From Nitrospinota bacterium (GTDB lineage Bacteria > Nitrospinota > Nitrospinia > Nitrospinales > VA-1), in the NCBI GenBank assembly GCA_038108555.1, contig JAYNIA010000014.1:1-48510 (forward strand): a stretch of 48,510 nt of DNA, written 5' to 3'. Made by a program: the position numbers. Below, one piece after another: positions 18,001 to 24,000 of the stretch. How positions within the stretch are numbered: the stretch's first letter is position 1; each line of letters begins with the position of its first letter.

Positions 18001-21000
18001 CGATACCTATGGCCATCAAAGAGGAGACACTTGTTTAAAAGAGGTGGCAGGTGTCATTGATGATGCCATGAAAAGGCCTGCGGATATGGCTGCAAGATTC
18101 GGCGGTGAAGAGTTTGCATTGGTCCTCCCTGAAACCAGCTCGGAAGGGGCCATCAGGCTTTCTGATAAATTGCGAGAAGCAATTTACTCCATGAATCTGG
18201 AGCATAAGAATAATCCTAACGAACCCCGTGTAACCGTGAGTATGGGAACCGCTACCATGAAAGTGGATAAAGGAAGCGATTATAAGGATTTGATAGCGAA
18301 AGCGGATAAGGCTTTATATGCCGCCAAAAATAGTGGAAGGAATCGGGTTGCAAGTTTCGATGAAGGTATGGAATTTTAATGCCTCAAAAATACGATTTTA
18401 GGGAATAATTAGAGCCCTTTCCTGATCTTTAGTTACGGAATTTCTATTCCACCCCTTTTTGTAATCCGCTCGCCTGCTCTACCTCCCTGGCGGGCGGATT
18501 TTTAGTTTTTTCCCCCCTTATCCAGCCCAATATCATTGATCCCTTGGTGACATTTGATAAGATAGAGGCTTGTATTTTCAGCTTCTAAAAGAAGGGACCG
18601 CTTTGCCATGCAAATTAAATTATCGGGTGGAGAAAAATGAAGATCGAAGATGTTGTTGACGACTGGGTTGCAAGTCCGCCGGATCTTTATTTTAAGCTCA
18701 AAGAAGTGATTGAAGACCCTGAAAGCTCATTTAAGGATATTGGAGGGGTGATCCTTCACGACCCGGCTCTTTGTGCGCGGATTTTAAAAATATCGAATAG
18801 TCCTCTTTTTAATTCCGAGTCTGAGGTTGAAACGATTGAACATGCATTGACTTTTATAGGGATGAATCAATTAGAGGAATTGGTTCTGGGTACCGTGGTG
18901 ATGGAAACTTTTAAGGGTATCCCGGTTGATTTGATAGATATCAATTCATTCTGGAAACACAGCATTGCTTGTGCTTTAACCGCCCGATTGATTGCCGAAC
19001 ATATTAACGAACCGGACCGGGAAAGATTTTACCTGCTTGGGATATTGCACGATATTGGTAGTCTGGTTATTTATAAAAAAGCACCCAAAGCTGCAAAACA
19101 GGCTTTAGACCTAAGTGAGGAAGGTTCAAAACCTTTATTTGAGGTTGAGACTCAGGTGCACGGTTTTAACCATGCAGAAGCAGGTGCTGCCCTGTTTCAT
19201 GCCTGGAGATTGCCCGAACGGTTGATTGAAGTGGTGGCCTGCCACCATTCCCCTCGAAAGTCCAAAAAATATTTAAGGGATGCTTCCATAATCCAACTGG
19301 CAGATATTATTTCCCACGAATTGGATTTGCAGGGAACGGGGGAAGGTTATTCGTCACCTATTGATGACGCCCTTCTTGAAGAATTGGGGCTTGCGGCAGA
19401 GGATGTGGATCAAATAAAAGAACAGTTAAAAGATCAGTTTGAACAAACGGCCGAAGTGTTTTTGTCTGCAACTTCTTGATTGGGTTTGGAATCTTTAGTG
19501 ATGGTGTTTAAAAGAATAATTTGTTCATTGTTTTTTTGGGGATGGATCCTTGTTCCAACACTTGCTTTTGCGGAATTGGATGATTCATTTATGCAGGCAG
19601 TTTTCGATGGGGATACCAAAAAAGCAGCATTTCTTCTCGATTCGGGTGCGGATATCGAAACCCGTACCAAAAAAGGAAGTACAGCTTTGATCGTTGCCTC
19701 GGCCAGGGGAGATTCCGAAATGATCAAGTTTTTGCTGGATCGGGGATCAAAAGTAAACTCCAAAAACCGGTACGATGATACGGCTCTGTTACTGTGCTCT
19801 ACCCGTGGAAATAATTTTTGCGTAAAAAGTCTCCTTGAAAAAGATGTCGATGTAAATGCAAGAAACATGCATGGTTGGAGTCCGTTGGCAAGGGCAGCGC
19901 GCTATGGTCATATGGAGACGATGCAGTTGTTAATCAAGCAGGGCGCAAACATAGAAAATCAACTCAATGATGGAGCGACGCCTTTATTGATGGCCGCAGG
20001 GGAAGAACATATCGGCGCGGTTCATTTGTTGTTGGAAAAAGGGGCCAATGTCCATGCTAAAGATTACGATGGTAATCAACCCATATTGCTTGCTGCCCTG
20101 ACGGGGCGTGCAGATATTATGGAACTCCTCATTTCAAAGGGAGCGGATATAAACACCAGAAATTCTTTTGGGGATCCCATTATATTTTTAGCCATCGAAC
20201 GGGGTTTTTCCGATTGCGTAAAACTGTTGATCGAATCCGGAATAAATGTGGAATTTCGCAGCCCTAAAGGTTGGACTCCCTTAATGCGTGCTGCCAAATA
20301 TGGTCGTGACAAAACTGCGAACCTTTTGATTGAGAAAGGTGCCGATGTGAATTCTGTAAGCAGAGGGGGAGCCACTGCTTTAATGATCGCTTCGGAAAAG
20401 GGCCATTTGGATGTTGTAAAACTCTTGATTGAAAAAAACGCAAATGTAAATGCGAAAAGTAAAAACGGAGCAACTCCTATTATCAGTGCAGCTGCGGGTG
20501 GGCATGAAGATATTGTTTCCTACTTGCTGAAAAAAGGAGCAGAAATCCACACTCATATAAGAAACGGATCTACCGCTTTGATGGTCGCCGCCGAAAGAGG
20601 ACATTTGGACACCGTAAAAGTTTTGATGGATCAGGGAGCAGATATTCAAGCGCGTAGCCATCAGGGATGGACTCCTTTGATGGTTGCTGCAGCAGGGGGG
20701 CACGCGGAAATTACCCGTTTGTTTTTGGACAAGGGGGCTAAATGGGATGTGAAATCCAAAGCGGGTTGGACCCCATTGAAGGTCGCTGCTAAATTAGGTA
20801 AGAAAGAAGTGTATCAGCAACTCATTGCTGCCGGTGCAAGAAGGTAAAGCCTTCAATTTTTCTCTATTAGATTGTCACGGATTATTTTAAGAAGGCCGAC
20901 ATTTTGGGTATGACCCGACTTGCTGGCTTTTATTTTTCCACGAATGGGTCTTCCCAGTAAATAAAAGTCCCCCAGGATATCCAAAATTTTGTGGCGTGGA

Positions 21001-24000
21001 AACTCATCTTCAAAACGCAATTTGGTATTTAAAACCTTCTTGTCCCCTAACAAAATAAAATTGTCGAGTTTCCCTCCAGAGGCATAGCCCATTTTTGTAA
21101 GCTGTGCTACTTCTTCCATGAAACCGAAGGTACGGGCCGGTGCAATTTCTTTCTTGAAACTTTCATCTCCCTGAAATTCAAAAGTGAAATCCTGAACTCC
21201 AATGGGTTCTGGATATTCCATATGGTAGCTGACTGAAAAATTGTCGCTGGGTTCGATCGAAATATAGGGTTCGCCTTTTTCCTTGTTGCCAAAAGAATAG
21301 CTTTTGTCAACCACGATCTCTTCATAGAAATCGTCCTGATCTTCAAATTCACCGTCTTCAAGAAGTTCGCAGAAATCTTTGGCTGAACCATCCATAACCG
21401 GTGCTTCATCACCAATTTTAATGAGAAGGTTTGTAACCCGGTACATGTGTAATGTTGCCATTATGTGTTCAATCGTTCCCACAGAATTTGCACCTCTTTT
21501 CAAGCAGGTGGAATAGTCCGTCGATTGAACGTTTTCCAACTGTGCAGGGATGGTGTTTCCAGATGCGATGTCACCAAAGATAATCCCGCTGCCGGGTGGC
21601 ATGGGTTGTAGGATGAGTCCTGTTTTAATTCCGGAATGCAGGCTGCTGCCGCAAAGAACAACACTTCTTTTTAAGGTTCGTTGTGGGTATTTTTTTTGCG
21701 GCGAAGCTGAGCTGGCTTCCTGTAACTCTATGGAATGAAATTTTAGTTTTTCCTGAAATTGGGTTTTGCTGGTTTTTAAAACCTTGCAGGTTTCGTCAAT
21801 ATTCCAGTTGTTTCTTTTTAGATGGTGAAGAATAAAATGCTTTTCCCAAATCGATTCGGCTTCCTGAAGTGATCCTGCCTCGTTAAAGGAACTGATATCG
21901 ATTTGATTTTGGGGTTTCCAGATTTCCGAGGGTAAATCCTTAATGCTTATTGTTTTCTGGTTGGCGCAAGTCAGAATCAATTTTTCTAAAACCGTTCTCA
22001 GTTCTTTAATGTTTCCCGGCCAGCTATATCTGCAAAGTGCAGTGAAGACATCTTCTTCGATAGTTGGAAGTGAAGAGTTTGTTTCACGCTTTTTCTCCTC
22101 CCAAAAGTCTTTCGCAATTAAAGAAATACTGGCTGCATGATTCCTCAGTGGGGGAATGGCCAGACGGGTTTCTTTAAAGCATTCAAGCAATCCTTGATGA
22201 AACCGACCCTTTTCAGCCAGTTCGTTGAGGTCTTCAGAAGATGAAATGAAAATTCTTTCGGGCAAAAACTCAAAGCTGGAGTCAGGATCGGTTGCGTTTT
22301 GTAATGCATCTGCAATTTTTTCCTGAAGGCCCTTGCTGAGGGATTCAATATTGCTCAGATAAACAACCTTGGCTCCTGTTGGGGATTGGGCTGTTGATGT
22401 GGTTTTTTTGTCTTTTCGTTGGAACAGTTGGGATTGAATAGCCTGCTTTTGTCGATAAGTGCAATTCAGTTTTACAAAAGGAAGGCTGCCAATCCTGCTT
22501 TGGGAATGGATGGTCCGCGCAACGGTTTCTTTCCCAGTCCCCGTTTCGCCCAATAGCAATACAGGCTTGGCATGTTTTGCCAGGGCCTTGATCCCCTTTT
22601 TAACTTCGACCATGGATTCGAAGCAATAGGGAAGTTCCTTTAGGTCCTGAGGTGACTTGACCTCTGCAGCCTGGACAGATTTCTTTTCTTGTAGAACATT
22701 TTGAATGGACTCGGTGATCCGATCGAGAGAGAAAGGTTTTTCAATAAAATCCTGAGCCCCAAGTTTTGTAGCTTTAACGGCAGTGTCTATTGTGCCGTGC
22801 CCGGACATAATCAAAACTTCAACTCCCGGATTATAGGTTTTTAAAGTCTTTAAAACTTCAATGCCATCCATCCCGGGCAGCCATATGTCGAGTAAAACGA
22901 GATCGGGCGGGTCTTTCTGAATTAATTCCAAAGCCTCTACACCGTCACCTGTCATTGAAACATCATACCCTTCGTCAGATAAGATGCCTGTAAGAGAACT
23001 GACAATATTTTTTTCGTCGTCAACGATTAGGATGCGTTCTTTAGTCAAACTTTTCTCCAATGGTTTCAGGTGACAGAGGTCACCGCTGCCTGCTTTAAAT
23101 ATTCAAGGTAAAATATCTTTTCGCCGGCATTTATAAAGTTTTTTTCGTATTTTGATTTGGGAAGATTATTGCGCTCTTTAAGAAAACCCTGATTGTCATC
23201 CAGATTTTGCAACAGGGTTTCAGAATTTAAGTAGTCCAGCATTTCATGCGCATAGTTTTCGCTATCCGTGGCCAAACAGACCCTTCCTTCCGGACTCAGC
23301 TTGTTCGCCAATTGGAGAATAAATTCCGGTTTGATCAGTCTTCTTTTTATATGTCTTTTTTTAGGCCATGGATCAGGGAAATTGATATAAACCGTATCCA
23401 ATTCCCCCTCTTGAAACAGATAAGGGATTTTATTTCTGATATCCCCATAAACAATCCGAATGTTTTTTAACTGAAGGTTTTTAATGCGGGTCATTATTTT
23501 TCGGATACCCTTATGATAAAAATCTATCCCTATAAAATTACTTGTGGGCTCTTTGGCTGCCATCTCAATCAGGAAGCTTCCCATCCCAAAGCCAATTTCA
23601 AGCTTTAATGGATGGGAATTACCAAAATGAGTCGGCCAATCCGGCCTTTCATCCATATCCAGAAAAAAGGGATCGTGTTCGGCTATTTGTGCAAACGATA
23701 TCAGTGGTTTTCCCATTAGCTTTTAAACTTAATCCTCATCGACTGGAAAATCATGTATGGTGATAACTTTCAAAACTTCAAATTCCAACCTGTTGTCAGG
23801 GAGAGGCACGATAACATCATCCCCTTCCTGTTTTCCTACCAGAGCGCGGCCTACGGGTGAGGCCGGGGAAAGCTTTCTTTCATCGGGGTTCACTTCTTCG
23901 GGAAAAACCAAATGGTATTTATTTTCTTCACCGGTGTTTAAATCGCGGAGGTAAAGGGTGCTTCCCAGTCCGGAACGGTCATTGGGTATCTGGTCCAGAT

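Follow-up and report, generated by a model that had tools for sequence, protein, structure and literature searches.

A receiver of the NtrX type fused to LpxC in Nitrospinota: origin, conservation and possible control of lipopolysaccharide synthesis

Lipopolysaccharide (LPS) synthesis is controlled mainly at LpxC, an antibiotic target whose regulation is understood in only a few proteobacteria. The genome-wide survey's note on a marine Nitrospinota bacterium (assembly GCA_038108555.1, here G000) had reported that the only LpxC of this genome shares one open frame with a receiver and an AAA+ domain, and this was confirmed by Pfam, TIGR00325 and a genome search. What, then, does a response-regulator receiver do on this enzyme?

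The fusion gene and its domains

The window analysed is the whole stretch of 48,510 nucleotides (contig JAYNIA010000014.1, positions 1 to 48,510). The relevant features are as follows.

23066..24214, minus strand: greA and trmB, upstream of the fusion gene in the same orientation, separated by 5-17 nt
20853..23060, minus strand: ntrX::lpxC fusion gene, one open frame, 735 aa from the first TTG at 23060
TTG at 23048, minus strand: alternative start of ntrX::lpxC, giving the 731-aa form that is database protein P0002
22704..23033, minus strand: NtrX-type receiver (Response_reg), aa 10-119, Pfam 1.6e-32
22185..22616, minus strand: degenerate sigma54-type AAA+ core (Sigma54_activat), aa 149-292, Pfam 4.5e-18
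21906..22145, minus strand: AAA+ lid (AAA_lid_14), aa 306-385, sensor II Arg replaced by Lys
21723..21866, minus strand: Fis-type helix-turn-helix (HTH), aa 399-446, hydrophobic core retained, recognition-helix motif gone
20880..21683, minus strand: complete LpxC domain, aa 460-727, Pfam 4.3e-79, model positions 1-266 of 268

Residues are numbered after the 735-aa form; D58 there is D54 of the 731-aa form. The receiver is intact, with the acidic pocket D14/D15, the phosphoacceptor D58 (codon 22887-22889), S86 and K108. In the AAA+ core, Walker A is present (aa 171-178), the DE pair of Walker B is replaced by S236-N237, and the GAFTGA loop and the arginine finger are both gone. An HTH_8 profile match at aa 406-440 (E 0.009) lies below the Pfam cut-off. 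The best NCBIfam match of the NtrX part is NF051870, at 252 bits against an equivalog cut-off of 600. PDB 5m7n, which we take to be Brucella NtrX, can be aligned to the fusion over aa 6-436; the top PDB match of the same comparison, 3dzd, is presumably NtrC4.

The LpxC domain scores above the curated cut-offs (266 vs 27 for PF03331, 223 vs 187 for TIGR00325). Its positions E531, H532, H690, K691, D694 and H717 are all intact; they belong to the EH, HKxxD and late His motifs, which we take to supply metal ligands and catalytic residues. Residues V468, G481, I483, K548 and C564 are typical of fused LpxC. A Met within 20 aa before LpxC occurs in just 18 of 125 fusions, so there is no conserved internal start. 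Since lpxB and lpxD are also encoded by this genome, which has no second LpxC, the best reading is that the fusion is the cell's working LpxC, a predicted deacetylase with the NtrX receiver as its regulatory domain. The gene is probably co-transcribed with greA and trmB; a scan for promoters and terminators around it gave matches at chance level only.

Distribution and conservation of the parts

LpxC matches were found in 108 of the 120 Nitrospinota genomes and in 56 of the 57 good ones; in those 56, LpxC and the NtrX-type receiver have a common frame length and contig. A single close NtrX-type receiver is encoded in each of the 57 good genomes, and 56 of these have it in the LpxC frame. A frameshift or assembly artefact was rejected, since the fusion is present in 56 of the 57. 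No description of a fusion of this kind was found in the literature. The survey had stated that all 120 matches listed carry the three Pfam domains; the number is 116 of the 120 listed (query region 300-735), and the remaining four are shorter (484-653 aa) and have no receiver.

Among 145 distinct fusions, the architectures are REC-LpxC (66), REC-AAA-HTH-LpxC (40), REC-AAA-LpxC (34) and REC-HTH-LpxC (5); the AAA+ part is missing from 71 and the HTH undetected in 100. The AAA+ part is retained in most Nitrospinales, and it is missing from G040, of the same family as G000 and in the same greA-trmB setting. The frames of 460-516 aa in the outer families f5 and f7, from which it had been concluded that the receiver is not universal, are REC-HTH-LpxC and REC-LpxC, respectively; here the AAA+ part was lost and the receiver kept. 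LpxC-FabZ was considered as their source and rejected, the frames being receiver fusions. The constant core of the fusion is the receiver plus LpxC, not the AAA+ part.

The conservation of the parts follows the same division. Over 28 representatives, mean identity is 0.82 for the receiver and 0.84 for LpxC, 0.65 for the HTH and 0.55, the lowest, for the AAA+ part. Among 125 distinct fusions, D58 is kept in 122, S/T86 in 125 and K108 in 124, the phospho-Asp being lost in two (N in P0141, S in P0147), and the metal and catalytic residues of LpxC are intact in 124-125. All 75 long forms lack GAFTGA (present in 18/19 unfused NtrX), the Walker B DE pair and the arginine finger, and the sensor II Arg is found in eight; their AAA+ part is predicted from these motifs to be catalytically dead in 75/75. 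Walker A is retained in 71/75, this protein included, which a view of the AAA+ part as pure spacer leaves unexplained. The recognition-helix motif is present in 0/53 fused HTHs vs 18/19 unfused ones.

Parsimony gave seven changes for the AAA+ part and 14 for the HTH among 68 sequences, on a rapidly built tree in which many forks are unresolved. For this reason, and because the HTH calls use a profile built from Nitrospinota, only losses inside well-supported clades were relied on; HTH losses do occur inside such clades. Five of the 107 stand-alone LpxC sequences are nearer to fused than to unfused ones; P0165, P0178 and P0187, stand-alone with a Met start, may truly have lost the receiver.

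G481 is found in 98% of fused vs 4% of unfused LpxC, and K548 in 98% vs 5%. An AlphaFold2 model of a 453-aa REC-LpxC reached pTM 0.84, as against an expected 0.62 or so for LpxC alone, a comparison made without a control. Together, these residues and this pTM suggest that receiver and enzyme are in fixed contact. Which domains touch is not revealed by the full-length model (pTM 0.56), in which the AAA+ core and lid are still predicted to fold well; the model of a relative, L147, matches solved LpxC structures (TM on the target 0.84-0.95). A two-chain prediction of receiver against LpxC domain scored 0.03 against a mark of 0.32 and is not evidence either way; inter-domain mutual information gave no clear signal in an alignment of 75 sequences, which is too shallow.

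Origin from NtrX and the partner kinase

In 17 of the 68 genomes with a stand-alone LpxC, an unfused lpxC precedes ntrY, in the order lpxC-(DUF4390)-ntrY-ntrX, and the NtrX there is an intact sigma54 activator. A sigma54 consensus stands before lpxC in 6 of these 17 loci (shuffle mean 0.11). The test is informative only once restricted to them; over the first 170 loci, the exact pattern gave three scattered matches. With near-duplicate and N-terminally cut sequences left out, as well as stand-alone sequences near the fused clade (L057, P0162, P0165, P0178 and P0187), one branch of the LpxC tree parts 68 fused from 37 unfused sequences (SH-aLRT 97). In the REC-AAA tree, the 22 fused sequences form one clade (SH-aLRT 100) inside the NtrX group (99; 19 unfused NtrX). 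At the level of sequence, comparative genomics shows the fusion to derive from the NtrX encoded after ntrY, and the unfused order is probably the surviving ancestral arrangement. After the fusion, judging by the alignments, GAFTGA, Walker B, the arginine finger and the recognition helix decayed or were repeatedly deleted, with receiver and enzyme left intact. Unfused operon, long fusion and minimal REC-LpxC make a clear series of regulatory rewiring.

The ntrY gene lies directly upstream of the fusion in f5 (4/4), f7 (3/3) and f9 (5/5 genomes with an LpxC match, two of these cases taken from coordinates), three basal families with 12 such genomes in all; elsewhere it is an orphan. In G000 the greA-trmB setting takes the place of this context, and ntrY is found on another contig (C54), after a DUF4390 gene and truncated where that contig ends. 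Of the 22 fusions in the phylum of G120, just 5 have ntrY next to them. NtrY was found in 104 of 120 genomes and 54 of the 57 good ones, with the layout NtrY_N-HAMP-PAS-HisKA-HATPase, an HEIKN motif and a DUF4390 gene upstream; in 15/15 Nitrospinales loci no receiver follows it. From these gene arrangements, NtrY is likely the partner kinase of the fused receiver. Where ntrY stands apart from the fusion, as in Nitrospinales including G000, f6 G005 and f9 G113, the pairing rests on exclusion.

Possible control of LpxC and known systems

With LpxC joined to a phosphorylation-sensing receiver, it is probably the enzyme, and not its gene, that is under direct control of a membrane sensor. We consider it fairly probable that an NtrYX-lpxC transcriptional circuit has been rewired, with phosphorylation now acting on the enzyme. 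NtrY, a membrane kinase/phosphatase, would respond to an envelope signal by adjusting how far D58 is phosphorylated, and the periplasmic, PlrP-like DUF4390 protein would tune NtrY; according to excerpts of PMC13001219, PlrP (DUF4390) restrains the PlrS phosphatase. The receiver would pack against LpxC and alter its activity allosterically, like other enzyme-output regulators, and the AAA+ and HTH parts would here be chiefly a remnant, serving as spacer or dimer scaffold and perhaps still able to bind nucleotide. Within this model, it is modestly favoured that phosphorylation would raise the activity, with the same sign as in the ancestral activator circuit, and with the phosphatase activity of NtrY as the brake. 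Excerpts of the LpxC review report that binding of MurA can activate LpxC, and that NtrYX decreases the lpxC transcript in alphaproteobacteria (PMC12444477); the effect of NtrX on lpxC in R. sphaeroides is indirect (PMC7240162), which counts against our best reading.

The receiver might instead govern the fate of LpxC, not its catalysis, through proteolysis or tethering to NtrY at the inner membrane. All conservation and kinase-pairing data are compatible with this; in E. coli, regulated proteolysis is the standard case, and membrane recruitment has been suggested for Neisseria Ght (excerpts of PMC12444477). Moreover, the usual LpxC adaptors were not found in G000 with the queries used, because YejM (PF11893) is absent by profile query and the LapB zinc-ribbon match reads as RadA. 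The apparent fixed contact of receiver and enzyme speaks against this explanation, and we regard it as unlikely. Passive fusion, with LpxC constitutive and the receiver a passenger or phosphate sink, is quite improbable. In its favour, the phospho-Asp is missing in two fusions, up to three LpxC of the fused clade may have shed the receiver, and chance fusion would have been easy because lpxC and ntrX were neighbours; however, the receiver is as tightly conserved as the enzyme while the intervening domains decay, and a full-length NtrY is retained without any other close NtrX-type receiver.

The survey's note had proposed that LPS synthesis is switched by two-component phosphorylation through AAA+ oligomerisation, the oligomer acting on LpxC. 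The first half drew support, more than the note had offered, from the matching conservation of receiver and LpxC and from the likely pairing with NtrY; the AAA+ mechanism did not. A foldable AAA+ part and lid, the retained Walker A and the presence of this part in most Nitrospinales would fit it, but the part is the least conserved, drifts fastest, appears dead in every long form and is deleted in f5, f7 and G040, so that we find oligomerisation very improbable. It is still harder to credit a trigger enzyme, in which DNA binding and control of sigma70 promoters persist and LpxC serves as sensor or as a second job of the protein. The HTH is present here with appreciable mean identity, and NtrC/NtrX proteins lacking GAFTGA control transcription (excerpts of 10.1101/2023.06.06.543975); against this, the recognition-helix motif is gone from all fused HTHs and most fusions have no detectable HTH, which makes the residual DNA binding once suggested unlikely.

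Weighing all this, we lean slightly towards one joint reading: a DUF4390-NtrY-receiver envelope-sensing system would switch LpxC directly by aspartate phosphorylation, having arisen once, when the sigma54 activator of lpxC became joined to the enzyme whose gene it controlled and shed the transcription machinery, and having spread over Nitrospinota, part of Desulfobacterota, Binatia, Acidobacteriota and others. If true, direct phosphorylation would be a new mode of LpxC control in several little-studied phyla, including abundant marine nitrite oxidisers. Broad NtrX regulons have left the signal of NtrY-family kinases unsettled; with the fusion, NtrY seemingly has a single output, an enzyme open to assay, and this suggests that the signal is the state of LPS or of the outer membrane.

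NtrY/NtrX (PlrS/PlrR) with PlrP share the receiver type, the REC-AAA-HTH layout, the kinase and the upstream DUF4390 gene. Known NtrX and PlrR proteins, however, are transcription factors. The fusion has an enzyme as its output, has lost the recognition helix and can do without the AAA+ and HTH parts. Binding of Aquifex NtrC4 to the lpxC promoter, for which no paper was found, was set aside. According to excerpts of PMC3333781 and PMC4045070, lpxC is the single target of a sigma54 two-component system in Desulfovibrio (DVU2931/DVU2934, Dde_3000/Dde_3003), and in S. fumaroxidans it directly precedes the orthologous operon. This lpxC-first order is that of the 17 unfused loci, and the Desulfovibrio proteins may be orthologues of NtrY and NtrX; unlike the fusion, the Desulfovibrio system is transcriptional and unfused. 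The known protein-level controls of LpxC, FtsH-LapB-YejM (E. coli), MurA binding (P. aeruginosa) and Ght (Neisseria), act at the same node, and none of them is known to use phosphorylation or a fused domain; the words "fused", "fusion" and "receiver" are absent from the main text of the LpxC review (PMC12444477).

The fusion combines a phosphorylatable receiver and an intact enzyme in one chain, as enzyme-output response regulators do, the effect of phosphorylation being predicted. CheB, PleD/WspR and RpfG are such regulators, with an intact receiver and an intact catalytic domain. Their outputs are signalling enzymes; that of the fusion catalyses the committed step in an essential pathway of biosynthesis. 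Unlike them, the fusion arose from a transcription activator joined to its probable target.

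The fusion gene and its retained domains

In the window, a single minus-strand frame joins an NtrX-type regulator to LpxC. Its features are as follows (residue numbers refer to the 735-aa form):

20853–23060, minus strand: fusion ORF, a single open frame of 735 aa; the database record gives a 731-aa form, which starts at the next TTG
aa 10–119, minus strand: receiver (REC; Pfam)
aa 149–292, minus strand: sigma54-type AAA+ domain (Pfam)
aa 306–385, minus strand: lid (Pfam)
aa 406–440, minus strand: Fis-type HTH (Pfam, weak match)
aa 460–727, minus strand: LpxC, full (Pfam)

The genome-wide survey's note described this one-frame protein as the only LpxC of the genome, which was confirmed by Pfam, by the TIGR00325 cut-off, passed by the LpxC part, and by six-frame translation of the genome; lpxB and lpxD are also present. 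A single LpxC per genome was found in 108 of 120 Nitrospinota genomes (56 of the 57 good ones). The best match of the first 440 residues is the NtrX equivalog, with a score of 252, far below the cut-off of 600. The protein is an LpxC that would work like an enzyme-output regulator; it is derived from NtrX, yet it tests negative both for NtrX and for sigma54 activators.

Mean pairwise identity, taken over 28 representatives from a set of 109 long homologues, reaches 0.84 in LpxC and 0.82 in the receiver, against 0.65 in the HTH and about 0.55 in the AAA+ domain and lid. Among 145 distinct fusions, 66 are REC-LpxC, 40 are complete, 34 are without the HTH, and five are without the AAA+ domain. 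REC-AAA-LpxC is found in many genomes of families f1, f2, f3, and f4, and the window's own family includes a clean 453-aa REC-LpxC (genome G040), preceded by genes whose sizes match greA and trmB. The short frames of families f5 and f7 had been thought to be without a receiver, but both families keep it, as REC-HTH-LpxC and REC-LpxC, respectively.

The phospho-Asp is present in 122 of 125 distinct fusions (the exceptions are two substitutions and one cut sequence), the receiver Ser/Thr in all 125, and the Lys in 124; the residues of LpxC that bind metal or take part in catalysis are kept in 124–125. Proteins P0141 (N) and P0147 (S), in which the phospho-Asp is replaced and LpxC is intact, are pseudo-receivers. 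In 75 long forms, the GAFTGA, Walker B, and arginine-finger patterns were found in none, the sensor II Arg in 8, and Walker A in 71, whereas 19 unfused NtrX proteins contain them in 18, 19, 15, 19, and 19 cases. The HTH recognition motif, present in 18 of 19 unfused proteins, is missing from all 53 fused ones. Judging by these sequences, the receiver and the enzyme are kept by selection, and the transcription parts have been released.

The NtrY kinase and the surroundings of the fusion

An NtrY-type kinase gene (739–753 aa; NtrY_N, HAMP, PAS, HisKA, and HATPase domains) lies immediately before the fusion in f5 (4/4 genomes with an LpxC match), f7 (3/3), and f9 (5/5, two of them read from coordinates), and DUF4390, encoding a periplasmic PlrP-like protein, precedes ntrY there wherever the locus extends that far. 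The kinase gene and the fusion are not adjacent in the f6 genome G005, the f9 genome G113 (where the fusion is cut by the contig end), and Nitrospinales. NtrY is present in 104 of 120 genomes (54 of 57 good ones), still at full length in Nitrospinales, and DUF4390 is upstream of ntrY in 16 of 16 loci. Downstream of ntrY, none of the 15 loci from Nitrospinales shows a receiver; the locus of f6 stops at the contig edge. In every one of the 57 good genomes, a single receiver matches at E < 1e-40, and in 56 of them it lies inside the LpxC frame; G001 has one weaker additional match, and neither receiver nor LpxC was found in G006 (6% contaminated). On contig C54 of the window's genome, the order is mutS, an epimerase gene (both named via their relatives), DUF4390, and ntrY, as it is in f7 and f9; the contig ends 180 codons into ntrY.

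In many relatives, purN-lolA-rseP directly follow the fusion. In the corresponding part of the window (12816–20847), look-alikes are located at 12816–15474, and between them and the fusion are four genes on the plus strand (two encode REC-GGDEF proteins, one an HDOD protein, and one an ankyrin-repeat protein) that appear to have been inserted later. The gene for the ankyrin-repeat protein and the fusion are convergent with a 5-nt gap, and a terminator-like hairpin at 20840–20854 overlaps both gene ends, the promoter and terminator scan overall being at chance level. A 577-aa ORF (10785–12518) resembles the PEP mutase and nucleotidyltransferase fusion that relatives retain downstream (identified on the L041 homologue), a likeness that points to phosphonate synthesis. 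Near the end of contig C62 of the window's genome (9764–12591), a pair of small HTH-like genes and a Mu-type transposase-like frame of 650 aa were noted by eye.

Spread and origin of the fusion

A search with the f7 protein against 1.84 billion representatives revealed many REC-LpxC proteins of 412–483 aa. Named records with fusions belong to Syntrophobacteraceae, Desulfomonile, Desulfocapsaceae, Binatia, Thermoanaerobaculia/Holophagae, Terriglobia, Aminicenantes, Thermodesulfovibrionia, Entotheonellia, and Spirochaetota. In the phylum of a Syntrophobacter record (G120; 91 genomes examined), LpxC was found in 89, and all 22 frames of at least 417 aa are receiver fusions. Of the 68 genomes of this phylum in which lpxC stands alone, 17 carry it immediately before ntrY in the same orientation, and in 16 of the 17 ntrX comes after ntrY; three Acidobacteriota loci have the same lpxC-ntrY-ntrX order. 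A sigma54 consensus is located 51–85 nt before unfused lpxC in 6 of the 17 loci (shuffles, 0.11; maximum 2 in 2000).

In a quick LpxC tree, 68 fused and 37 unfused proteins fall on opposite sides of one branch (SH-aLRT 97); the tree omitted five stand-alone rows lying near the fused clade, of which one is a split reading frame, one is a fragment, and three may have lost the receiver. In a quick REC-AAA tree, the fused parts form one clade (100) inside the NtrX group (99), which stands apart from six other enhancer-binding proteins. These topologies are consistent with, though short of proof for, a single origin. The spread is patchy, and transfer may be among the causes. In genome G151, lpxC stands alone ahead of ntrY, whose next 3 kb contain no ntrX, and a REC-LpxC is encoded at another site (loci L199 and L190); both LpxC forms in one cell are possibly a transition state. 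The Thermoanaerobaculia genome G124 (L067) encodes LpxC only as a REC fusion, at a distance from ntrY, along with a separate protein 50% identical to unfused NtrX; since other Thermoanaerobaculia carry the unfused operon, this hints at replacement by transfer.

Predicted contact, proposed mechanism, and known systems

The AlphaFold2 model of the 453-aa form (pLDDT 87.7, disordered linker 136–172) has a pTM of 0.84, where rough arithmetic gives 0.62 if LpxC alone is placed and 0.85 if the receiver is placed too; this value, obtained without a control, suggests a defined receiver–enzyme contact. In the full-length model every domain is folded (pLDDT 88.6), and the pTM of 0.56 fits two domains packed together, whichever two these may be. 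G481 (98 vs. 4%), K548 (98 vs. 5%), and C564 (91 vs. 5%) distinguish fused from unfused LpxC, and I483 and V468 are likewise common in the former and rare in the latter. From the alternation along strands aligned to solved LpxC, we infer that several of these residues face outward on the first sheet; shared ancestry alone could also have yielded them.

Probably, in an NtrYX–sigma54 circuit that transcribed lpxC, the regulator became joined to the enzyme, which made the circuit shorter; phosphorylation of the receiver Asp, D58, would now be set by NtrY and DUF4390, and the receiver would act on LpxC. The genome comparisons document the descent, decay, and pairing steps at the level of genes, and we infer phosphotransfer, receiver–enzyme contact, and the sign of regulation. 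It is unlikely that the receiver instead controls the stability or location of LpxC, and that it is a passenger is less likely again, its identity being close to that of the enzyme. The oligomerisation switch of the AAA+ domain, proposed in the survey's note, seems quite improbable, given that the minimal form has no AAA+ domain; the Walker A that persists in the long forms speaks for it. Least probable of all is DNA binding by the fusion protein, in which an HTH is still weakly recognizable.

Among the literature matches listed, none describes a receiver–LpxC fusion; domain-architecture tables in supplements could list it, and subscription papers were mostly outside coverage. The main text of a 2025 review (PMC12444477) does not contain the words "fused", "fusion", or "receiver", and the available part of a paper covering Nitrospina LPS genes (PMC5007114) does not mention the fusion. 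NtrC and NtrX proteins that lack GAFTGA do regulate transcription (10.1101/2023.06.06.543975); 10.1101/2021.11.05.467447 is further related work. As far as the accessible sections of the sources go, the PlrS phosphatase is restrained by PlrP, with lpxC not mentioned there (PMC13001219), NtrY is mainly a phosphatase (10.1101/2021.04.17.440287), and loss of NtrYX raises lpxC 8.8-fold, an NtrX site before lpxC being absent (PMC7240162). In Desulfovibrio, according to the portions available, a sigma54 regulator has lpxC as its single target, and lpxC is increased in the kinase mutant (PMC3333781, PMC4045070).
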